In this document: positions 1 to 10,674 of the stretch, piece by piece
Layout of the letters: every line of letters starts with the position of its first letter
Position numbering within the stretch: position 1 is the stretch's first letter
Source: a virus
Taxonomy: Duplodnaviria > Heunggongvirae > Uroviricota > Caudoviricetes
Direction: 5' to 3' (one strand)
Virus record (IMG/VR): IMGVR_UViG_3300011584_000016
Span: 1-32,869 of that record
DNA: 32,869 nt
Position numbers and translations under genes: made by a program
Notes under the pieces: generated by a model
Told to the model about the DNA's origin: nothing
The model's input: only the letters and a program-made list of their open reading frames with translations
The model's database searches: none

Positions 1-993
1 TTATATTTTCATCGTAGCTAATGGGTTTAATGTCACCGCATCAAACAAATGATCAGGGGCAAAGTGGGCATACGTCATCGTTTGTTGGATTTTGTGATGG
101 CCCAGGACTCGTTGAAGTACCAATATGTTTCCTCCGTTTGCCATGAAATGAGAGGCGAAAGTGTGCCTGAAAGCGTGAGTTGCCTGTCCGTCAGGTAGAT
201 CAGGAACAGCGCCTTTAATAACTTTTCGTGCAGTCTGATAGCTCGCATCCGGGAAAATCAGTTGTTTGTCGTGTACTTCAATCCTCTGCATTAACTCCAT
301 TTCCAGTTCCTTACCGATAGGAACTGAACGTGATTTGCCATTTTTGGTTTTTGTAAATGTCACCATGCCGTTAACCAGTCTCTGCCTGGTTAATTTTGCA
401 CCTTCACTCCATCGTGCACCGGTGGACAGACAAAGTTTGGCTATCAGCTTGTTGTCGCCTGTTAACTCTGTCAGAACCGTTCTAATCTGTTCGTCAGTAA
501 AATATCCCTGTTCTGATTCGGTCAGTTTCAGTTCTGCGAGTCCAGTCATTGGGTTGTTATCCCAGAATAGATCCAGTTCTTTCAATTTACTGAACACTGA
601 CTTCAAGTATCGTTGTTCATTATTTAACGTTTTTGGCGCGATCCCTTCTGCCCGCCGTTTTGTTCGGTACTCTGCAAAAAGCTGGGCGGTGAGTTGGGTT
701 ATACGTGGATTATTTAAGCGCGCGCATGAGGCATTCAAAATCCATAACCGGTTTTTGCAGTCGGTGAGCGTTTGCCCGTGGTTCTTCCACCACAATTCGA
801 TCAGTTCAGATAACCGACGCCGATCAGCTGGTTTTTCCAGCCATTCTTTATTATTAGCACTGGCTATTATCCAGCGTTCAAAGGTGACAGCCTCTGATTT
901 AGTGGAGAATGAACGCCTGACGCGCTTCCCGGAACGCCCCGCAGGCCGAACATCAACCATGTATTTTCCGTTGTCCTTTTTAGTAATGGTCAT
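1..993 (-). CDS. int: Phage tyrosine integrase (site-specific recombinase)
   Basis: 330-aa ORF; C-terminal region HAFRHTFASHF...LGH...TMTYAHF fits the tyrosine-recombinase catalytic R-H-R-Y pattern; sits at the prophage edge next to a repressor gene. Confidence 0.9.
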   Translation of the reverse strand: MTITKKDNGKYMVDVRPAGRSGKRVRRSFSTKSEAVTFERWIIASANNKEWLEKPADRRRLSELIELWWKNHGQTLTDCKNRLWILNASCARLNNPRITQLTAQLFAEYRTKRRAEGIAPKTLNNEQRYLKSVFSKLKELDLFWDNNPMTGLAELKLTESEQGYFTDEQIRTVLTELTGDNKLIAKLCLSTGARWSEGAKLTRQRLVNGMVTFTKTKNGKSRSVPIGKELEMELMQRIEVHDKQLIFPDASYQTARKVIKGAVPDLPDGQATHAFRHTFASHFMANGGNILVLQRVLGHHKIQQTMTYAHFAPDHLFDAVTLNPLATMKI

Positions 994-1097: not shown

Positions 1098-1376
1098 TTA
1101 TTGGTTAATAGATTGTTTTGGCGAGCGAAGAGGGAAAAGCGCCGGATCGATTTGCCCGGATGATGCTGCGGTCTTATTTGTCATCATCCATAACGTATAT
1201 TTATTGAATCTGGGGTTTCGGGTGATCTTCAATAAATCAATATCAGGCAGCGTCATTATTATTTGCTGCCTGAATTGATACAGTGTCTTCTTCGAAATAT
1301 CACAAAACATCGCGAATTCGCAGATAGTGAGATTTTCAGCATTAATTATCAAGAATAAGCGGTTACGCAAGGACAT
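1098..1376 (-). CDS. P2 C-type repressor paralogue (HTH), integrase-proximal
   Basis: About 92 aa from the internal Met (MSLRNRL...); C-terminal PRFNKYTLWMMTNKTAASSGQIDP parallels PRFQKYTLWLMSDITAPEAGQIAP of the repressor at 2471-2731 and the C-terminus I recall for P2 C; start could instead be 1403. Confidence 0.6.
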   Translation of the reverse strand: MSLRNRLFLIINAENLTICEFAMFCDISKKTLYQFRQQIIMTLPDIDLLKITRNPRFNKYTLWMMTNKTAASSGQIDPALFPLRSPKQSINQ

Positions 1377-1419
1377 ATACACCTCGATTGCTATTATTGG
1401 CATTCAGGGCGCAAATGTA

Positions 1420-1557: not shown

Positions 1558-1992
1558 TTAGAACAGCTCTTTTACCAAAGCGATTATGACTCCTGCTGTA
1601 GCGAAAAGGGCAGAGCATAGCCATATCATTTGCTTATGTAATCCCTTTGCAAGATCTTCCCTGGTTGCGGACCTGGACTCTTTGAGTTCGCCGCTAATCT
1701 GTGCCTTAAGCTCGCGCATATCTCCGGTCATCTGCGCACGGAGTTCTTTCATATCCCCAGTTATCTGCGCCTTGAGTTCACGCAGATCGCCCTTTGAGGC
1801 GAAGTCATCAGCGCGCGCGTTGAGATGGGTAAGTTCTTTAACAATTACACCGGTATTGTCTTCCAGTTTTTCAACGCGTTTTATTAGGCTGTTCATGCCG
1901 TTGCCTCCGTCGTCACTACTGTTTGTGGACTCATTATTTATGGGTACCTGACGTTCTCTTATATGATGAACATTATCCTTAGTCTGACTCAT
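1558..1992 (-). CDS. Coiled-coil protein with C-terminal transmembrane anchor (DUF1640-like), unknown function
   Basis: 144 aa; tandem heptad-like repeats GDLRELKAQITGDMKELRAQMTGDMRELKAQISGELKE then hydrophobic tail MIWLCSALFATAGVIIALV; overlaps the upstream gene by 14 nt. Confidence 0.6.
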   Translation of the reverse strand: MSQTKDNVHHIRERQVPINNESTNSSDDGGNGMNSLIKRVEKLEDNTGVIVKELTHLNARADDFASKGDLRELKAQITGDMKELRAQMTGDMRELKAQISGELKESRSATREDLAKGLHKQMIWLCSALFATAGVIIALVKELF

Positions 1993-2428
1993 TTTTGCAT
2001 TCCTTGCGATTCTCTTCTATCCATGCGACGACCGGGCGGGCGCGATAAATGCTGATATGCCCGCAGTTTGGGCAATTAATTTTATATTCGACATCGGCTA
2101 ATCTTATTTTTGTATGAGTATTCACAAACACGGGCGTTACATACCAGAGAGTATTATCAGCTGCGAATTTCTCCTGATCGATTTGCGATAAAGAGTCATA
2201 GTTTTCGGGAGTCTTTGCACCGTTATAAACTCCGTTTTCGGACATTGTTAATTTAGTAAATCCACATGATATGCAGAACTGAGCGGCGTTTTTTGACATC
2301 AAAAATTCAGCGAATAATTCAGGGGTAACTTGTTGTAGCCTTTTCATAAGTTCTGGTGATGGTTCTCCATAGCGGGAATTACGAGGTGGGCGTATTGGGG
2401 GTATAAATGTATCATTATCTTTTGACAT
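1979..2428 (-). CDS. Hypothetical zinc-ribbon protein (CISCG ... CPNCGH)
   Basis: 149-aa ORF with two Cys pairs about 70 residues apart; lies between the distal repressor gene and the coiled-coil gene on the same strand. Confidence 0.55.
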   Translation of the reverse strand: MSKDNDTFIPPIRPPRNSRYGEPSPELMKRLQQVTPELFAEFLMSKNAAQFCISCGFTKLTMSENGVYNGAKTPENYDSLSQIDQEKFAADNTLWYVTPVFVNTHTKIRLADVEYKINCPNCGHISIYRARPVVAWIEENRKECKNESD

Positions 2429-2470: not shown

Positions 2471-2731
2471 TTAACCGGTCTTTTTCTCTTCTTTGGTAAC
2501 TGGTGCTATCTGACCTGCTTCTGGTGCGGTGATGTCAGACATCAGCCATAGCGTGTATTTTTGAAAGCGCGGGTGTTGGGCGATTTTAACCAAAGCACTA
2601 CCACCAGGTTCATACCCCCCCGTTTCATATTTCCTAAGCGTATTTATAGATAAGTCAATAACTTCGCAAAACTCATTCTGACTAAGACCTTCGGCTGCTC
2701 TAATCGCTTTTAATTTTTCACCAAGTTTCAT
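2471..2731 (-). CDS. P2 C-type immunity repressor (XRE-like HTH), adjacent to the switch region
   Basis: HTH-like LSQNEFCEVIDLSINTLRKYE; C-terminal FQKYTLWLMSDITAPEAGQIAP resembles P2 C as I recall it; likely ATG at 2731 rather than the TTG at 2746 used by the ORF track. Confidence 0.7.
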   Translation of the reverse strand: MKLGEKLKAIRAAEGLSQNEFCEVIDLSINTLRKYETGGYEPGGSALVKIAQHPRFQKYTLWLMSDITAPEAGQIAPVTKEEKKTG

Positions 2732-2739
2732 TTGACAGT

Positions 2740-2785
2740 AGTCCAATTAGACATTAAATCTCCCTTCATGCAGTCTAATTAGACT
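2740..2785. promoter_or_regulatory. Switch-region operator-like sites: AGTCCAATTAGACA (2740-2753) and perfect palindrome AGTCTAATTAGACT (2772-2785)
   Basis: Two related 14-bp sites with centres 32 bp apart, between the divergent repressor gene (start 2731) and the first rightward gene (2829). Confidence 0.4.
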
Positions 2786-2828: not shown

Positions 2829-3248
2829 ATGACACCAGAGCAAAACAGAGCTTTACCCGCACATCAGGAGGCTGATCCTGGTTACTACCCGGTCGTTGAA
2901 CTGGCACAAGGCGCGTTTTTACCCGAACAGACTCAAAGCAATCATCAGCGCCGCGCTCGGCGATCCCCTGATAGTCGTTCTGAACGTGAACTAATGGCAA
3001 TTGACCGCGCACTGAAACATATCCTTAGTAGTGGCATTAAACCGGTTTTAACAGTGCAGGAATTTTCCGAATTCTTCGGACAGTCTTTGCGTAAGGTTCA
3101 AAGCGATGCTGAGCGCGGCTATCTGCCATTAGTGCCGCGTGTCGATCCAAATCGTCGCGAACTAAGACAAATCAATATGGTTGCATGGTATGCCAGAGCT
3201 TTTATGACTGCCGAAGCCAGCCTGACAAAAACGACAGCGTTTAATTGA
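2829..3248 (+). CDS. Putative Cox/excisionase-like early regulator
   Basis: First rightward ORF after the switch; AGGA 8 nt upstream of ATG; N-terminal 55 aa low-complexity so true start may be ATG 2994; assignment by position only. Confidence 0.4.
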   Translation: MTPEQNRALPAHQEADPGYYPVVELAQGAFLPEQTQSNHQRRARRSPDSRSERELMAIDRALKHILSSGIKPVLTVQEFSEFFGQSLRKVQSDAERGYLPLVPRVDPNRRELRQINMVAWYARAFMTAEASLTKTTAFN

Positions 3249-3256
3249 GAGGAAAA

Positions 3257-3493
3257 ATGTTTAATCCACTTAACACAGAAAAGGCGCGGGAAGTCGATCC
3301 GTTTTATGAAGGGTACGACGTGCCGGTATATGTGCAACCGGGTAAGCGACTGCCCGTCGCGATCGAATCCCGCGAAATGGAAATGGCAATTCTGGCCGCG
3401 TTTGATTACGGCATTGACGCACTGAACGATGACGGACGCCACCAACTGGACCGCCTGATCGCTGATCTAAAGCTTGCCATTACTGGCAGATAA
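3257..3493 (+). CDS. Hypothetical early protein
   Basis: GAGAGG RBS 6 nt before ATG 3257; about 79 aa. Confidence 0.5.
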   Translation: MFNPLNTEKAREVDPFYEGYDVPVYVQPGKRLPVAIESREMEMAILAAFDYGIDALNDDGRHQLDRLIADLKLAITGR

Positions 3494-3504
3494 ACGGGTG
3501 CGCA

Positions 3505-3726
3505 ATGAGCCAATATTTTTTTTCGGGGATATTTAATGTTGCGGTTTTTATTTTGGGGGCCGTTGTTGTTTGGTCCTACGGAAGATTAAAAAACAGTAGC
3601 AACAGAATCCGTTTTATTGACGCATTACACAGGGATATTGAAGCGGCGGCACCATTATTTTTAGATGTATTTTGTGGCTGGTTGCTAATATTTGGCGTCG
3701 TTTCCCTTTCAGAGTGTCTTTTATGA
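3505..3726 (+). CDS. Hypothetical small membrane protein
   Basis: 73-aa ORF with two hydrophobic stretches; weak RBS. Confidence 0.3.
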   Translation: MSQYFFSGIFNVAVFILGAVVVWSYGRLKNSSNRIRFIDALHRDIEAAAPLFLDVFCGWLLIFGVVSLSECLL

Positions 3727-3953
3727 GTGAACAACAAATTCCTTCATTCGCCAGTCTATTACGTAACGGTTGCCAGGTCACACATTGCAAATCGACGCGC
3801 GGCTGGATTGAAACACCGGACGGGCGTTATTTTAAGCCTGAACCGGCAAAAGTTCAGTTTATTAAGGGCAGAAACAGGCCTTTTGTATATACGCAAAAAA
3901 TAAACAGGGCCGTAATAGCCGCATTGATTAAATTAATTAAACGCTATTTTTAA
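3723..3953 (+). CDS. Hypothetical early protein
   Basis: About 76 aa from MSEQQ; ATGA overlap with the previous ORF suggests coupling. Confidence 0.4.
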   Translation: MSEQQIPSFASLLRNGCQVTHCKSTRGWIETPDGRYFKPEPAKVQFIKGRNRPFVYTQKINRAVIAALIKLIKRYF

Positions 3954-4030
3954 TTAACTGAATTTATTAAATATCACACATCACTTTAAAAAGTGGTGCG
4001 GATTCTTTCAACCTAAAAACGGGTAATTAT

Positions 4031-4246
4031 ATGTCTATGACTAAACGGGATGAATACAGTTTTGTATTGCATTCATTTTTACCGGAGCTTGAAGAGCGCG
4101 GAATGACTATAAAAACGCGTAACGCAGGCGAATTAACACTGGCATCAACAGATCCTGATGTTGTTGCATTTATACAATCCATGCGCCGTCGTCTTACTAA
4201 TGCGCTGAGCCGTCCATCTCTTCCCTCTTCACCATACGGAATCTAA
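4031..4246 (+). CDS. Hypothetical early protein
   Basis: 71-aa ORF ending 2 nt before the exonuclease gene. Confidence 0.4.
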   Translation: MSMTKRDEYSFVLHSFLPELEERGMTIKTRNAGELTLASTDPDVVAFIQSMRRRLTNALSRPSLPSSPYGI

Positions 4247-4248
4247 TC

Positions 4249-4836
4249 ATGAATAATATAATGATTGACATTGAAACATTAGACAATAAACCAACTGCCG
4301 CAATTGTTTCTATTGCTGCCGCATTTTTCGATCCCCGAACTGGCGAGATTGGGATGTCTATTTATATTCCCGTCAATGTTGCTGATGCTCAATACAAAGG
4401 GGCGACAATTGGTGCGGATACTGTTAAATGGTGGATGAAGCAAAATTTATGCGCAAGAGATGAGCTTGTATCTGATGCTGGCTTGCCTTTATCAGAGTCG
4501 CTCTATAAGTTGAACGATTTTTGTTGTTTTTGTGATGATTCAGACAATTTAAAAATATGGGCGCGCGGCACTGATTTTGATTTACCAGTTATTTATCACT
4601 CAATGCGCCTGACAGGGATTCGTCCGGCCTGGAATTTCTGGAATGCTCGCGACGTTAGAACGGTTGCAGAAATCGCGCTGACAATATGCGGTCATTCATC
4701 AATGCGCGCGGTTCTGGAACATCCGCATCACGCAATGAATGACGTTATTAACCAGATTGCCAGATTAAGCGACGATATCAAAAACATTTCTGCCGTTCGC
4801 GCGGAGAAGGTGAATCATGATTCGCCGGAAAAATGA
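4249..4836 (+). CDS. DnaQ-like (DEDD) 3'-5' exonuclease
   Basis: N-terminal IDIETLD (Exo I-like acidic motif) and C-terminal HHAMNDV (Exo III-like H-x4-D); 195 aa. Confidence 0.7.
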   Translation: MNNIMIDIETLDNKPTAAIVSIAAAFFDPRTGEIGMSIYIPVNVADAQYKGATIGADTVKWWMKQNLCARDELVSDAGLPLSESLYKLNDFCCFCDDSDNLKIWARGTDFDLPVIYHSMRLTGIRPAWNFWNARDVRTVAEIALTICGHSSMRAVLEHPHHAMNDVINQIARLSDDIKNISAVRAEKVNHDSPEK

Positions 4837-5038
4837 TAATTGCCCCGCCTGCGTTGTTGATCAGGCACACAATTTAATTAATGAATTCCGACAGGGTCGC
4901 CGCGATAAAGTGCGGCGGCTGGCGACTGGTTATCTGTCAATTGCAATCGGCAGATGTTGGCGGTTACTGAGTAAAAACGACGGCCAGCAATGGACTTTAT
5001 TAACTCACGAACGATATAACAAGGAATATAAAAAATGA
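4817..5038 (+). CDS. Hypothetical small protein (CPAC motif)
   Basis: 73-aa ORF overlapping the exonuclease 3' end by 20 nt and ending in ATGA overlap with the Dam gene. Confidence 0.35.
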   Translation: MIRRKNDNCPACVVDQAHNLINEFRQGRRDKVRRLATGYLSIAIGRCWRLLSKNDGQQWTLLTHERYNKEYKK

Positions 5039-6051
5039 TCAGACCGTTTTTGAAGTGGGCAGGTGGAAAAACTCGCGCTTTGCCTGAGCTGCTGCCGCAC
5101 TTGCCAAAGGGTTATTGTCTGATGGAACCATTTGTTGGCGGCGGTTCGGTATTTTTAAACACAAGTTATGATAAGTATGTTTTAGCTGATATTAATTCAG
5201 ATCTGATAAATACGTATGAAAACGTGAAACATCGCACTAATCTATTTATTGACGTTGCACGGGAATTATTTAAAGAAGGTAATTCAAAAGAATATTATTT
5301 AAAGATTCGCAAAGAATTTAACGAACTAAATACAAGTTACCACGAATGCGGTCGCCGCCCCTTATCACTGAGATTGTCGTTAATGCAGTCGGCGCGGTTT
5401 CTCTATTTGAATCGGCACGGTTATAACGGCGTTTGCCGCTATAACAATAAACTGGAATACAATGTTCCGTTTGGTCAACATAAGACAGCGCCGTATTTTC
5501 CCGAAGAGGAGATCCGGCGGTTTGCAGAAAAGGCGAATGATACAAACGCAGTGTTTCTCAATCTTAATTTTGATGACACATTATCAATGCTGACATTCGG
5601 GCCTAATCTCGTTATTTACTGCGATCCGCCATATTTACCCGCCAGCGAAACCGCAGACTTTACCACGTATTACGGACAGAGATTTACGCGGGACGATCAC
5701 TGCCGCTTAGTTCAGAAATTATTAGAAATAAGTGCGCGTGGTGCTGCAAAAGTTGTTATTTCAAACAGCGACACACCCGCCGCGCGAGAAATATACGTGT
5801 CGTTTACATTTCAGGAAATTAATGTTCAACGGTCAGTCAGTGCCAATACCAGCAAACGCGCGACTGCAAAAGAAGTGATCGGATATATCCCACATTGTGA
5901 ATATTGCGGGGGTCGTCTGATTACTGGCCGTCCGTGTAGTTGTGACACCCAACGCCGCACGGTTTGGGGTTGCCCTGATGGCGGCTGCGGAGCTTGTGAC
6001 AGTGTCGATCTTTGTGCGAGCGCGGGGAGTGAATTCTATGACCAGGACTAG
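5035..6051 (+). CDS. dam: DNA N6-adenine methyltransferase (Dam-like) with Cys-rich C-terminal extension
   Basis: N-terminal FLKWAGGK (AdoMet motif) and catalytic DPPY; C-terminal about 60 aa carry 9 Cys (HCEYCGG...CSCD...GCPDGGCGACDSVDLC). Confidence 0.85.
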   Translation: MIRPFLKWAGGKTRALPELLPHLPKGYCLMEPFVGGGSVFLNTSYDKYVLADINSDLINTYENVKHRTNLFIDVARELFKEGNSKEYYLKIRKEFNELNTSYHECGRRPLSLRLSLMQSARFLYLNRHGYNGVCRYNNKLEYNVPFGQHKTAPYFPEEEIRRFAEKANDTNAVFLNLNFDDTLSMLTFGPNLVIYCDPPYLPASETADFTTYYGQRFTRDDHCRLVQKLLEISARGAAKVVISNSDTPAAREIYVSFTFQEINVQRSVSANTSKRATAKEVIGYIPHCEYCGGRLITGRPCSCDTQRRTVWGCPDGGCGACDSVDLCASAGSEFYDQD

Positions 6052-6235
6052 TGCGCCCGCCGTCATTACCCGTGTATTTGACATATGGGAAATAAAAAAG
6101 AATGAGCAGTATTTAATTGATGCCGAAGTGTTTATTGACGGGTTTTACCGCAATGAACAGATCACGCGTTCCACGCGATATCAGGCAATTAGAGTTTTAC
6201 CCGGTGACAATATTGATTTGAGGGGTGCGGAATGA
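6038..6235 (+). CDS. Hypothetical small protein
   Basis: About 65 aa from ATG 6038 with GGGGAG upstream; the ORF-track start at 5942 lies inside the Dam gene. Confidence 0.35.
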   Translation: MTRTSAPAVITRVFDIWEIKKNEQYLIDAEVFIDGFYRNEQITRSTRYQAIRVLPGDNIDLRGAE

Positions 6236-6636
6236 CAATTCACATAGTAGCGATTCAGCCGGATTATTTTCAGCCAGTGTTAAAACGCGAAAGACGCGCG
6301 GTGCTGTTAAATGAGGGGGATTATATAAAAGAAGATTTTTTATTTATCCGTGAGTTTGTTTTTGACGATACAGGAAAGAATCCGCCAACGGCGACAGGGG
6401 CTTGTGTCGCCGGGGTGATTACTGATGTTTATAAGACGGGGACTGGCGATGTTTTGCTGAGTTTTGATCTGTTATTTGTGTATAGCTATGTGCTTATTAA
6501 TTGGGGTCTGACAAGAGGTGATCTGCTTAAACTGAGTATTTACCCTGACTTTCTTGAAGAGCTTTTTACCGCGCACCCTCATTCGCCCGTATTTTACGCG
6601 ATCGCTTACCGCATGATTGAAGAGGCGGATTTATGA
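6232..6636 (+). CDS. Hypothetical protein, possibly ASCH/DUF3850-like
   Basis: 134-aa ORF coupled to the upstream gene by ATGA overlap; fold call is from general resemblance only. Confidence 0.4.
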   Translation: MTIHIVAIQPDYFQPVLKRERRAVLLNEGDYIKEDFLFIREFVFDDTGKNPPTATGACVAGVITDVYKTGTGDVLLSFDLLFVYSYVLINWGLTRGDLLKLSIYPDFLEELFTAHPHSPVFYAIAYRMIEEADL

Positions 6637-6673
6637 CCGCCTATTACAACGAAATCGATCCATTCGCTGCTCT

Positions 6674-9181
6674 GTGGCTGGCGTCTATCAATTGACGCGC
6701 GGACGCTACGCCCCAACACCGCCGCCCCCGTTCCTGGGGAGCGGCGCAGACACTACACTGTATCCATACGCGTGGAACGCCCCGCGCGCAGCAATTAGCG
6801 TTGACCGGACGCCGAAACATGATCCGCAGGAGTTCGCCGCAGAATACGAATTCTGGCAGCGTGTAAAATCCACTTTTCAGCCATATCCGACATTCATCCG
6901 CCGCCGCATGATGGCGCGCGTTGAACGTTCTCACGAAAAGCAGGGGCGACACGTCGCGGCGCTGGCGCTGCGAGATATCGCCAGCCGCGAATTAATCCAC
7001 ATTTCCGCCGTTATGCAGCAGTATTCCATAAGCCCGCCCCGCAATGCTGGGCGGGTTTATGAAACGCCGTTTGTTGGCCTTGAGCCGCTCTATCACAATT
7101 TTGAACAACTCACCGATCTGATCCGTCGTTTCGACACACTGCCTGATTATTCGCCGGAGGATGTTGAATTACTGGCGCAGGACGTCGCAATTTACGCAAA
7201 CGCCACACTGGCAGAAATTGCCGCAGATTGTGAACACCTGGACGAAATCGAAACTGGCCGGCGGTTTTACGCTGAATTGAAAACGTTGGCTAACGTTTTT
7301 CACGTCACGGCGGCAAGGGCAAACAAAAAACGCTTGTTGCCCGACGAGCTGGCGGCAGCGATCAGCAAAATGATCGACGCGCGCTACTGGAACCGCAATT
7401 TACTGCGTTACGCCGTGCGCTGGCGGGAGCATTTGCGGATCTCCCTGGGCGACGTGCGCCGCAGCGTGTCAACCTATTGTAGTAAAGAACGCGTGAATGC
7501 GTGGCGGGAGCGTCGCGAGCGTAATCGCGACATCATGTCAAGACTGGAAATAGAAGACGTTGAATCAGGCGAGCGTTTTTCACTGCTGGAGCAGATAGAA
7601 AAAAGCGCGTCCAATCCAGCGATACGCCGCACCGAGCTTATGACGCGAATCGGCGGTTTTGAGCGAGTAGCCAATGAGCAGGGATTTGTCGGCAGCTTTT
7701 TTACTATTACCGCGCCGTCAAAATATCACGCGTTTACCGCGTTTGGTCATCGTAATCCTAAGTGGCAAGGCGCTAGCCCGCGCGAGTCTCAAAAATACCT
7801 GAATACCATTTGGCAGCGTATCCGCGCCGAGCTGGCGCGCCAGGAAATCGGCGCTTTTGGCTTACGTGTAGCCGAGGCGCATCACGACGCAACGCCGCAC
7901 TGGCACGGCCTGTTATTCACTCTGCCGGAGCATCAGGAGGCGCTACGCGACGTCATGCAGCGTTACGCAACAGCTGAGGACGCCGACGAATTAACGACGA
8001 AACACGGCATACAGCCGCGTTTCGATTTCAAACCGATTGATCCCGAGCGGGGAACCGCTACGGGCTATATCGTCAAATACGTCTCTAAAAATATCGACGG
8101 TTACGCGCTGGATAATGAGCGCGACGACGAAAGCGGACGTCCACTGAAAGACACGGCGCAACATGCGACCGCGTGGGCGTCTACGTGGGGGATCAGGCAG
8201 TTCCAGTTTTTGGGCGGTGTGCCGGTGTCGGTGTACCGCGAACTGCGGAGGCTGGGGAATCAACAGGCCGCTGATCAGATTAATCCGCTGTTTGCCGAGA
8301 TCCACGCCGCAGCGGACGCGGGGGATTGGGGCGGGTTTGTTAATCTCATGGGCGGACCGCTGGCAAAACGCGCGGATTTACCGTTGCGCACGTTTTATCA
8401 GGATAAACCGGAGCCTAACAGCTGGGGCGAATATCTGACGGTTATCCGTGGTGTATTTATGCCGCTGATTAATATCCCGCCGGTAATAACCAGGTTGCGG
8501 GATTTTCGCATTGTTAAAAAATCGCCGGAGAGCGCGGAGCGCCCCGGTGATGGCTGTTCATCTTTTGACCTTAAGGGCGCGTCTGCGCCCGCTAGGACTC
8601 GTGTCAATAACTGTACGGAGCATGAAAAAACAGCAAAAGATGAACAAAATATAAACAGTGAAGCGGATTTTTTGGGAGAGAAAAACAGCGGTGCGCCGCC
8701 ACCGGGAGATCCCGAACAGGTTCTGATCGGCAAATTGACACGGGAACAACGCAAACGCCTGCGCGCTGAGTGTCTGACGCACAAAAAACAGCGTAAACAA
8801 TCGGCTGCTGACGAGTTCGAAGCGCTGGCGAATCAATTAGCGACGGCGGACTGTTCGGGCACGGACCAGCTGCGCGCAGAAAATTATTTACGTGCGGCGG
8901 CGGTCATTCGCGAGACTGAAAAACCGGTCACGGCTGCAGCGGCAGAACTGGCCGCGCGCGTCATGGAGTGGGCGAAATTGCGCAAAATACCGCTGGGCCG
9001 CGCGCAATCGCTGGCACTGGCGCAAGGCGGACAGGCGACAGTTATTGACAACGTTTACCGGGCTAACATGAACACCGGCGAACTGATCCTGATTGACACC
9101 TTCCAGCCGTGGCGGCGTGTGCTGGCGAAAAAACAAACTGTGGAACTGATGGCGCGCTGGCGGGCTGTGGTAACCGTATGA
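6674..9181 (+). CDS. A: Rolling-circle replication initiator, P2 gpA-like HUH endonuclease
   Basis: HUH motif TPHWHGLLF, catalytic tyrosines GYIVKYVSKNIDGY, and N-terminal GRY...YAWNAPR resembling P2 gpA as I recall it; start uncertain (GTG 6674, TTG 6617/6692 or ATG 6908). Confidence 0.85.
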   Translation: MAGVYQLTRGRYAPTPPPPFLGSGADTTLYPYAWNAPRAAISVDRTPKHDPQEFAAEYEFWQRVKSTFQPYPTFIRRRMMARVERSHEKQGRHVAALALRDIASRELIHISAVMQQYSISPPRNAGRVYETPFVGLEPLYHNFEQLTDLIRRFDTLPDYSPEDVELLAQDVAIYANATLAEIAADCEHLDEIETGRRFYAELKTLANVFHVTAARANKKRLLPDELAAAISKMIDARYWNRNLLRYAVRWREHLRISLGDVRRSVSTYCSKERVNAWRERRERNRDIMSRLEIEDVESGERFSLLEQIEKSASNPAIRRTELMTRIGGFERVANEQGFVGSFFTITAPSKYHAFTAFGHRNPKWQGASPRESQKYLNTIWQRIRAELARQEIGAFGLRVAEAHHDATPHWHGLLFTLPEHQEALRDVMQRYATAEDADELTTKHGIQPRFDFKPIDPERGTATGYIVKYVSKNIDGYALDNERDDESGRPLKDTAQHATAWASTWGIRQFQFLGGVPVSVYRELRRLGNQQAADQINPLFAEIHAAADAGDWGGFVNLMGGPLAKRADLPLRTFYQDKPEPNSWGEYLTVIRGVFMPLINIPPVITRLRDFRIVKKSPESAERPGDGCSSFDLKGASAPARTRVNNCTEHEKTAKDEQNINSEADFLGEKNSGAPPPGDPEQVLIGKLTREQRKRLRAECLTHKKQRKQSAADEFEALANQLATADCSGTDQLRAENYLRAAAVIRETEKPVTAAAAELAARVMEWAKLRKIPLGRAQSLALAQGGQATVIDNVYRANMNTGELILIDTFQPWRRVLAKKQTVELMARWRAVVTV

Positions 9182-9351
9182 ATGTTAATGTTATTTTAGG
9201 AGAGAAGTTATAGGCGATTTACTCAAGCAGATTTGGTAATATCAGCGGAATTGATGCATGGTTTATTATTGTCAGCAATGGAAGGTATATTATTAATTTA
9301 GGCTTATATTTGTTCTGCAAGTATAAAATATAAAATGGCTTGAGGTAAAAT

Positions 9352-10674
9352 ATGTACGCTGAGTTAAATGAATTTATAAATGCTCTAGATAAATTAAAAG
9401 ATTATTTTGATGAGTCTGAAAAATCATATGGGCATAAAAATAAATGGCTTATAGAAGCATTTGGCATCGGTCATCCTGTAATGTTGCCAAAAGACTTTTC
9501 TGACTATATTGAAAGAATGATCGAGAAGTCAAAAAAATTAGAGATGCTTAAATTAACTGATTTCGAACTAGATGAACTCGACTATGTAAGAAAAGTCGTA
9601 ACAAAGGTACATTCTGACCTTGCTCCTAGCTTTTATAATGGAAATGGTGTACAAGCGATTCCTTCATTTTTAATGACCATGACATATATATCTTCATTTT
9701 TAGATTCTTTGATTTCCTTCGACCGACTCCAGGATACGGATGCCGTACCTCAGAAATTAGCACGTAAAATACGGAGTATGGATGCAAGAGTAAGACAAGC
9801 TACTCCAGAAATTGAAACACTGGAAGGTAAAATTAAATTGATTAACGATGCATATGCCGCAGCTGATAATCTACCGGTATATATGGAAGAGTTAAATAAA
9901 TACAAGGCAGAATTAACGGAAATAAAAGAGTACATTTTAAAGGCAAAAGAAGAAGCATCTCATTCGAATGTCTTAATGGATGTTTGTCTAAACGAAGGGG
10001 AAAAGATAAAAGAAGAGTTAAATGCAAAAAAAGAGATCGCAGAAAATTATCTTTCGAAATGTGAGGAAGCTATTCGTGCTTCGACTTCAAAAGGGTTAGC
10101 GGGAGCTTTTGAGATCAAAGCGAATAAGTTAAACTGTAGCATTCGTTTATGGGTAGCAGGATTATCTGCGGCATTAATTGCCGGTGGGTTTGTTGGTTAT
10201 GAAAGGTTAAAAGCATTATCCAATGTTTTAGCGCAACCAGATACCAGTGCAATAGTGATTGCAACGCAATTAATACTATCCATATTTAGTATCGGCGCGC
10301 CGCTTTGGTTTGCGTGGTTGTCTACAAAGCAAATTAATCAAAGATTTAAGCTAGCAGAAGATTATGCCTTTAAGTCTGCCGTTGCAAAAGCATATGAGGG
10401 TTACAGAAAAGAAGCATCGCAACTTGATGATGGAACATTCGCTACTCGGTTGTTTGATTCTGCTTTAACCCGTCTAGAGGAAGCCCCATTAAGATTTGTC
10501 CAAGGTGATGATCACTCAACACCATGGATGGAAATGTTAAACTCTAAAGCTTTTTCTAAATTTCTTGATTCTTCGATTGATAATGTAAACTATGTTAAAA
10601 ATATCCTTGATCGTAAGGCTAAACCCTCTGTAGTTGCAGATAAGCCACAGCAGATGGAAAAGGGGACTGAATAA
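9352..10674 (+). CDS. AT-rich cargo gene: 440-aa coiled-coil protein with two predicted TM helices, unknown function
   Basis: GC content visibly lower than flanking phage genes; GAGG RBS; hydrophobic segments IRLWVAGLSAALIAGGFVGY and AIVIATQLILSIFSIGAPLWFAWL; no nucleotide-binding or nuclease motif seen. Confidence 0.7.
   Translation: MYAELNEFINALDKLKDYFDESEKSYGHKNKWLIEAFGIGHPVMLPKDFSDYIERMIEKSKKLEMLKLTDFELDELDYVRKVVTKVHSDLAPSFYNGNGVQAIPSFLMTMTYISSFLDSLISFDRLQDTDAVPQKLARKIRSMDARVRQATPEIETLEGKIKLINDAYAAADNLPVYMEELNKYKAELTEIKEYILKAKEEASHSNVLMDVCLNEGEKIKEELNAKKEIAENYLSKCEEAIRASTSKGLAGAFEIKANKLNCSIRLWVAGLSAALIAGGFVGYERLKALSNVLAQPDTSAIVIATQLILSIFSIGAPLWFAWLSTKQINQRFKLAEDYAFKSAVAKAYEGYRKEASQLDDGTFATRLFDSALTRLEEAPLRFVQGDDHSTPWMEMLNSKAFSKFLDSSIDNVNYVKNILDRKAKPSVVADKPQQMEKGTE

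Follow-up and report, generated by a model that had tools for sequence, protein, structure and literature searches.

Why should an otherwise ordinary DNA adenine methyltransferase of a prophage end in a short extension crowded with cysteines? The question is raised by the dam gene of IMG/VR record IMGVR_UViG_3300011584_000016, a caudoviral sequence of 32,869 nucleotides that was analysed over its whole length (hereafter the window) and that reads as essentially a P2-like (Peduoviridae) prophage. Here we present a comparative analysis of this gene and its relatives. The catalytic part of the enzyme is known and ordinary, and the tail is a clade-specific appendage that is undescribed in the databases and literature searched. 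Taken together, we lean towards reading the protein as a phage-borne orphan GATC methylase of the early operon that carries a dispensable, metal-binding adaptor tail.

The Dam core and its C-terminal extension

An initial annotation, made from the sequence alone, had assigned the product of dam a canonical Dam core, and motif, profile and structural comparisons bear this out. The protein carries FLKWAGGK at residues 5-12 and the motif I signature FVGGGS (FxGxG) at residues 33-38, and it has motif I, the recognition domain and motif IV in the order of the alpha class; residues E31 to G35 of motif I are invariant across relatives. It matches the Pfam family of D12-class N6-adenine methyltransferases (PF02086) over residues 8-267 (E = 2.6e-60; 204.7 bits against a cut-off of 22) and the NCBIfam Dam family (TIGR00571) over residues 2-282 (262.6 bits against a cut-off of 114.85). 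The E. coli Dam (EcoDam) structures align to residues 3-283 (E = 3e-68), and the alignment is colinear with EcoDam 5-265. Furthermore, an AlphaFold2 (AF2) model built on a 63-sequence alignment was confident over the core, with a predicted local distance difference test score (pLDDT) mostly above 80, and Foldseek superposed the modelled core on EcoDam with a template-modelling score of 0.91-0.92 and a root-mean-square deviation of 2.2-2.5 Å; DpnM and T4 Dam followed EcoDam as weaker matches. The protein is thus judged to possess a complete Dam-family N6-adenine DNA methyltransferase core, that of an ordinary enzyme already annotated in near-identical E. coli prophages.

With EcoDam (PDB 2G1P, 4RTJ), the window enzyme shares the alpha-class D12 fold, the order of the motifs, DPPY, FxGxG and most of the GATC-contact residues, at 49.6% identity over residues 3-282, and EcoDam is likewise an orphan enzyme. 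EcoDam differs in being a 278-residue chromosomal housekeeping enzyme that ends 12 residues past the shared core and has no cysteine tail, whereas the window Dam is phage-encoded, has an insertion in its recognition domain and, at 271.9 bits, lies below the cut-off of 441 for the host-Dam equivalog NF008152. The insertion segment (5326-5390, residues 98-118) is highly variable in both length and sequence among prophage relatives. The Dams of T4/T2, P1, VT-2 and HP1 are orphan GATC adenine methylases of phages as well, and the role ascribed to them is protecting phage DNA or completing its methylation; T4 Dam, the member of this set that was compared by sequence, is distant (E = 1e-12; 22-23% identity in the structural alignment), 259 residues long and without a cysteine tail.

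The second claim of the initial annotation concerned the last 60 or so residues, which were said to contain nine cysteines and to constitute an addition to the minimal Dam. The enrichment stands: eight cysteines fall within the 55-residue tail as opposed to five in the 283-residue core (binomial P = 5.5e-6). The count does not, as there are eight and not nine, at C288, C291, C301, C303, C313, C318, C321 and C327, spaced C-x2-C-x9-C-x-C-x9-C-x4-C-x2-C-x5-C. Since EcoDam aligns to residues 3-283, the extension starts at about residue 284, and alignment to the E. coli and phage enzymes confirmed its presence from that point and its absence from EcoDam, T4 Dam and DpnM. The tail continues the dam reading frame without a stop codon, the other two frames being either broken by stops or part of the next gene, and it is a real in-frame extension of the methylase. 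The GC content of the tail (56%, versus 43% in the core) was considered as a sign of foreign origin, which was rejected: the excess lies at codon positions 1 and 2, with similar GC at position 3, and reflects the content of cysteine, glycine, arginine and proline.

Database searches returned nothing that describes this segment. Pfam, NCBIfam, PHROG, PADLOC and PDB contain no entry for the tail, and the best match of a tail profile to PDB sequences, ribosomal protein L40e, was not significant (E = 1.1). Searched alone against a word index of 5.8 billion proteins, the tail found only a 76-residue fragment of a broken dam gene. An exhaustive phmmer search against 1.84 billion representatives gave three matches to repetitive, unrelated proteins, which were rejected as spurious. 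The cysteine modules recur in no other open reading frame (ORF), either of the window or of 30 related loci, and a literature search found no description of a cysteine-rich tail on a phage Dam.

The initial annotation had also called the enzyme an orphan, with no cognate restriction gene beside it. Searches with Pfam, PHROGs, NCBIfam and PADLOC agree, revealing no restriction endonuclease among the neighbouring genes and hence no cognate nuclease gene adjoining the methylase as in a type II restriction-modification system; the best PADLOC model for the Dam protein is itself named 'orphan methyltransferase'. Orphan status is thus supported by the predicted gene content.

The tail among related prophage methylases

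A search with the whole protein yielded 7,496 matches, and the tails of the best 120 cluster representatives were surveyed. At least four cysteines follow a conserved EVIG anchor in 75 of these 120 closest representatives; another 23 have short tails with no more than two cysteines, and 21 have long, cysteine-poor tails. Thus, the extension is no peculiarity of the window gene: cysteine-rich tails appear from this survey to be common but fast-changing among related prophage methylases. The commonest tail reads VLxVCxxCGRxGGGxCPDCGP... and contains a CxxCG/CPxCG knuckle pair, each of its four cysteines being present in 51-63 of 63 sequences, a set picked for having tails. When window-type and common tails were compared with hhalign, only the first CxxCG knuckle aligned, with a probability of 12.8%.

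The eight-cysteine form found in the window is shared with relatives from E. coli, Salmonella and unassigned assemblies (P0001-P0005, and more loosely P0007) that are 64-90% identical overall. All eight cysteines are invariant in six sequences, those of the window and five relatives, though the tails drop to about 35% identity. In codon alignments of the six window-type genes, the ratio of nonsynonymous to synonymous substitution rates (dN/dS), taken where dS was not saturated, was 0.10-0.25 for the tail and 0.06-0.24 for the core. On this evidence, the tail is judged to be under purifying selection.

The tail also has the marks of a modular element. Module B (see the table for the module boundaries) sits alone straight after the core in some relatives, and in the window module A is inserted ahead of it. 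The G-C-x2-C-x5-C of module B is invariant in all 12 aligned tails, with its first cysteine at a variable distance of either four or ten residues. Natural relatives of 276-287 residues have no tail at all, cores that are 93-95% identical bear unrelated tails or none, and over half of the pairs with core identities of 80-90% have tails less than 35% identical. In some relatives, the tail is cut short, has lost an internal part or is joined to the beginning of the small ORF that follows. We take the tail to be modular and dispensable; its presumed dispensability for catalysis follows from the existence of natural tail-less variants and from its position outside the aligned core.

The long, cysteine-poor tails of some relatives result from an in-frame fusion of dam to the N-terminal part of the downstream small ORF, which bears a GFDPA motif.

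In a scan of one genome per species, all cysteine-tailed loci were Enterobacterales P2-like prophages with the gpA gene downstream. In other bacteria, the chromosomal Dams (no more than 45% identical) stop 1-11 residues past the core, with at most one cysteine in that stretch. A neighbour test showed that common tails adjoin many different downstream genes; the window-type tail always precedes the same 65-residue ORF, in what is a single lineage only. The closest named counterparts are the Peduoviridae Dams of Enterobacter phage phiT5282H and of Salmonella phages SEN4/SEN5 and SI7, which occupy the same early-operon place upstream of gpA, are 53-56% identical to the window protein, comprise 322-327 residues, and likewise have cysteine-rich tails after the EVIG anchor. 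Their tails differ, having the pattern CxxCG-x5/6-CPDCG with five cysteines, or a ten-cysteine variant in SEN5, and only the first knuckle aligns with that of the window. The records for these phages say plainly 'DNA methyltransferase' and do not mention the tail.

Additionally, in 41 of the 75 cysteine-rich tails an acidic run leads up to a last residue that is F, L or W, and acidic tips closing with an aromatic residue recur in at least four unrelated tip sequences. Ends such as ...FDDLEAF, ...EENPIPL, ...DNPETW and ...VDEDEF resemble, as a short-motif likeness only, the C-terminal tip of SSB (single-stranded DNA-binding protein), DDDIPF, which is a docking peptide for replication and repair proteins (PMC5872125). 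The tip of the window tail differs from that of SSB in having no terminal hydrophobic residue, and docking of this type is a weak lead for the window gene, resting on the tips of its relatives.

Predicted function and the alternatives

Judging from gene order, the prophage repressor would keep dam silent in the lysogen, and production of the methylase would accompany that of the replication proteins once the prophage is induced or a cell is infected. In E. coli EC958, reverse-transcription PCR led to the conclusion that a Dam homologue carried by a prophage was inactive under the conditions tested (PMC4659465). The alpha-class core would then bind S-adenosylmethionine (AdoMet) through motif I (FVGGG) and flip the target adenine into the DPPY pocket, where it would be methylated at N6, most probably within GATC. 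The benefit to the phage would be rapid and complete methylation of its genome during replication. From established Dam biology, full methylation would be expected to shield progeny DNA from GATC-cutting restriction enzymes that are blocked by N6-methyladenine, and to deny MutH and SeqA the un- or hemimethylated sites that they nick and bind, respectively. Of the four-base palindromes in the window, GATC is the most over-represented, with 170 sites observed and about 138 expected (observed/expected 1.23); the phage does not avoid GATC and has many sites to keep methylated. The gene neighbourhood accords with an anti-restriction role, since a C5 methylase, Lar and a gene resembling 3'-phosphoadenosine-5'-phosphosulfate (PAPS) reductase are found in the same block of relatives; no evidence for a regulatory role was found in this analysis.

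Two further features of the sequence composition were recorded: CTAG and GGCC occur in the window at about half of expectation, and one GATC overlaps the dam start codon (ATGATC, 5035-5040).

In the tail, the eight cysteines would form two small Cys4 metal sites, corresponding to modules A and B, and the most likely metal is zinc, to judge by the cysteine patterns. Zinc binding is plausible because the cysteines are invariant and because the window tail retains a CxxCG knuckle; metal binding is also favoured by the paired rubredoxin-type knuckles, CxxCG...CPDCG, of most relatives. Compared with a zinc ribbon or rubredoxin, the window tail has one such knuckle (C288-C291), followed by C-x-C and then by C-x4-C-x2-C-x5-C. 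Eukaryotic DNMT1 and MLL contain a CXXC zinc finger in which eight cysteines bind two zinc ions and which recognises unmethylated CpG. The likeness is conceptual only, in that an eight-cysteine module on a DNA methyltransferase could read DNA or regulate the enzyme; the spacing and order of the cysteines are different, and the tail is not a member of that family. Rather than taking part in catalysis, the tail may serve as an adaptor that docks the enzyme to a partner protein or to replication-fork DNA.

A more far-reaching version of this proposal, which we regard as quite unlikely, is that the tails of P2-like prophage Dams are interchangeable metal-cluster docking cassettes, each combining a Zn2Cys8 or [4Fe-4S] site with an acidic/aromatic end like that of SSB, and linking the enzyme either to components of the replication machinery, namely gpA, partners of SSB or the clamp loader, or to some factor of host defence or repair. 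If true, the swapping of cassettes between near-identical cores would represent an arms race or host-specific adaptation, and a metal cluster together with a recruitment peptide would have been shown for the first time in a Dam-family enzyme.

Several observations weigh against a GATC methylase with a metal-binding adaptor tail. With respect to specificity, EcoDam L122 is replaced by V, R137 by Q148 and Y138 by H149, and about 12 residues are inserted in the helical DNA-recognition region relative to EcoDam. With respect to the tail, comparison with Pfam gave no zinc-finger or other match even at E <= 10, and AF2 produced no confident structure, the pLDDT being below 50 for the tail in the full-length model and averaging 48.8 when the tail was modelled alone from 12 sequences. 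The window protein ends in ...FYDQD and has no terminal aromatic residue; a weak or conditional function is another way to read how often tails are lost and swapped; and gpA is the sole consistently co-occurring candidate partner, an association confounded by shared ancestry. Also, no characterised member of the tailed clade was found.

How, then, do other explanations of the tail and of the enzyme fare? One is that a [4Fe-4S] cluster, instead of zinc, is bound by the whole tail or at any rate by module B, giving a Dam with an iron-sulfur cluster like the cluster loops of DNA-processing enzymes. The [4Fe-4S] motif of endonuclease III and MutY is C-x6-C-x2-C-x5-C, and that of AddB, Dna2 and Cas4 is C-xn-C-x2-C-x5-C. 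The sequence C313-x4-C318-x2-C321-x5-C327 fits this spacing, as does the combination of an invariant triad with a variable first cysteine in the 12 aligned tails; CX2CX5C moreover recurs in [4Fe-4S] binding motifs such as those of the SPASM auxiliary clusters, and CPDCGPC (C-x2-C-x2-C) is present in roughly half of the common tails. This likeness is in spacing only, with no match of sequence or profile, and no confident AF2 model of the tail speaks for it; many relatives, furthermore, have exactly four cysteines in CxxCG...CPDCG, which is a classical zinc or iron knuckle pair. We consider the cluster unlikely and prefer zinc.

That the tail has no function, being a tolerated read-through that evolves fast where dam meets the variable downstream genes, a junction prone to recombination, would account for its loss, truncation, deletion or fusion in many relatives, for near-identical cores with unrelated tails, and for the low AF2 confidence. 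It does not sit well with the low dN/dS of the window type, in which the eight cysteines are kept while most other positions change, nor with the retention of the knuckle cysteines in the common type, in a set chosen for tails, or with acidic tips and terminal aromatics recurring in unrelated sequences. On balance, a functionless tail is very doubtful.

The third alternative concerns the core: the methylase would act at another site than GATC or be relaxed in its specificity, as are some phage adenine methylases (PMC7556043). It draws on the three replacements and the insertion described above and on the score below the host-Dam equivalog cut-off. The residues of EcoDam that contact GATC, which we take to be K9, Y119, L122, N120, R124, P134, R137 and Y138, are conserved in the window protein at K9, Y119, N120, R124 and P134, and the TIGR00571 score is far over its cut-off. 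GATC specificity is probable because of these conserved base-contact residues and the identity to EcoDam over the whole core, and only probable because of the glutamine and histidine replacements and the recognition-domain insertion; a different or relaxed specificity is in our view decidedly improbable.

Finally, that the cysteine segment belongs to a separate overlapping gene, as an other-frame ORF at 5942..6235 might suggest, or is a frameshift artefact, or that the methylase is half of a restriction-modification pair, is scarcely credible, given that this ORF is a 5' extension of the 65-residue gene starting at ATG 6038, for which RefSeq annotates the same short overlap with dam in E. coli relatives, that the substitution pattern fits the dam frame, that full-length homologues of 331-338 residues recur in independent genomes, and that searches found no restriction-type nuclease family nearby.

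The prophage locus and the meaning of the tail

The features of the locus are collected in the table below. The rightward early operon has the order cox-like gene, fil, exonuclease, ParE-like ORF, dam, two small ORFs and gpA, and the gpA gene marks it as a P2-like early/replication operon. The genes from 2829 to 9181 share one strand, with slight overlaps and with stops overlapping starts, in a layout that matches the early operons of P2 and 186. For example, the TGA stop codon of the ParE_like ORF overlaps the dam start codon (ATGA). The synteny around dam is kept in 30 related loci, with gpA downstream in all of them. The segment 4249-6636 is about 96% identical to prophages adjoining mipA/yeaG in seven complete E. 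coli genomes, where the gene is annotated 'DNA adenine methylase'. A megablast search of 4000-9200 against the phage collection gave no match, and the closest phage relatives are found at the protein level only. A scan for promoters and terminators was uninformative, its matches being no more frequent than in shuffled sequence.

Table. Coordinates of the genes at the dam locus and of segments of the Dam protein (window positions)
Feature	Position	Strand	Remarks
Integrase	1-993	(-)
phrog_147 repressor	2471-2746	(-)
cox-like gene	2829-3248	(+)	divergent from the repressor
Fil-type cell-division inhibitor			early operon order: between cox-like gene and exonuclease
Rv2179c-like 3'-5' exonuclease	4249-4836		early operon, two genes upstream of dam
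ParE_like-domain ORF	4817..5038	(+)	73 residues; upstream of dam; PF24732, E = 1.8e-17
dam	5035..6051	(+)	338 residues plus stop; ATG start
Dam catalytic core	5035..5883	(+)	residues 1-283; alpha-class Dam fold
Motif I, EPFVGGGSVF	5125..5154	(+)	residues 31-40; AdoMet binding; read from sequence
Motif IV, DPPY	5623..5634	(+)	residues 197-200; catalytic; aligns to EcoDam D181-Y184
C-terminal tail	5884..6048	(+)	residues 284-338; 55 residues, eight cysteines
Cysteine module A	5896..5943	(+)	C288-x2-C291-x9-C301-x-C303
Cysteine module B	5971..6015	(+)	C313-x4-C318-x2-C321-x5-C327
Acidic/aromatic C-terminal tip, SEFYDQD	6028..6048	(+)	read from sequence
65-residue ORF	6038..6235	(+)	3' of dam; ATG 6038; 14-nt overlap with the dam end
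134-residue ORF			between 65-residue ORF and gpA; relatives match DUF3850
gpA-type replication initiator endonuclease	6617..9181	(+)	PF05840, E = 6e-98; phrog_91, E = 2.3e-227

The surroundings of dam vary among related loci (designated L004 and so on). The ParE_like ORF lies directly 5' of dam in L007, L009 and L012, and an RNase_T gene intervenes in L011. Downstream, the 65-residue ORF is called as a coding sequence in the RefSeq annotation of the E. coli relative L006; it belongs to a family of small proteins (65-101 residues) that are translationally coupled to the end of dam. The downstream small ORFs of the window-type loci L007, L011 and L012 share the pattern ...V.SRVF.VWE.K....Y..D.E.F.DGFYRN, and those following dam in L016, L026 and L029 look related, with a GFDPA-like motif in two. 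Loci L007, L009, L012 and L013, which have the same tail type, contain extra genes between dam and gpA that are absent from the window: a C5 DNA methylase (PF00145), a PAPS-reductase-like gene, the Lar restriction alleviation gene, a second DUF3850 gene and a derepression protein. By predicted gene content, the dam-gpA interval of these four loci is a variable anti-restriction block.

The dam gene is also matched exactly by spacers of E. coli type I-E CRISPR (clustered regularly interspaced short palindromic repeats) arrays located between queE and ygcE, at 5107-5141 (+) and 5875-5909 of the window; matches were also noted at 1501-1532 of L004 and at 1501-1532 of L005. Window positions 5110-5141 correspond to a spacer of strain F3_13_1_3, with a canonical AAG protospacer-adjacent motif (PAM) at 5107-5109. 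Positions 5875-5906, which encode the start of the cysteine tail, correspond to a spacer in strain ECONIH4, and among the matches listed at least six further records match the same stretch at 100% inside annotated CRISPR arrays. This protospacer is on the minus strand, with the non-canonical triplet CCG in the PAM position, the same letters with which the repeat ends.

Elsewhere in the window, an ORF of 440 residues at 9352-10674 (+) occupies the accessory-gene hotspot of P2-like phages, between gpA and the genes for an ogr-like regulator and the portal. Neither Pfam nor NCBIfam has a family for it, its PHROG match is phrog_34659 (unknown function), and its PADLOC matches, to LmuB and to a type I methyltransferase, are weak (E about 8e-4); the approximately 96% identical E. 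coli prophage L006 has other genes at this position, an sfsB-like gene and one for a HEPN protein. Between the integrase and the repressor lie three ORFs (1098-2428, (-)), of which 1098-1403 (-) encodes a second phrog_147-type regulator, a paralogue of the repressor at 2471-2746. The other two, 1558-1992 and 1979-2428 (-), are of unknown function, and the latter has a motif like that of zinc ribbons, CxxC...CxxC, at its end, with a weak match to NCBIfam.

The findings from this analysis indicate that the Dams of Enterobacterales P2-like prophages usually bear an unannotated C-terminal appendage that is cysteine-rich, selected and rapidly exchanged. Should the tail do nothing measurable, the gene would be one more orphan phage Dam. 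If instead the tail binds metal and recruits the enzyme, it would explain how these phages couple methylation to their own replication, and it would add a new small domain to the methyltransferase repertoire.

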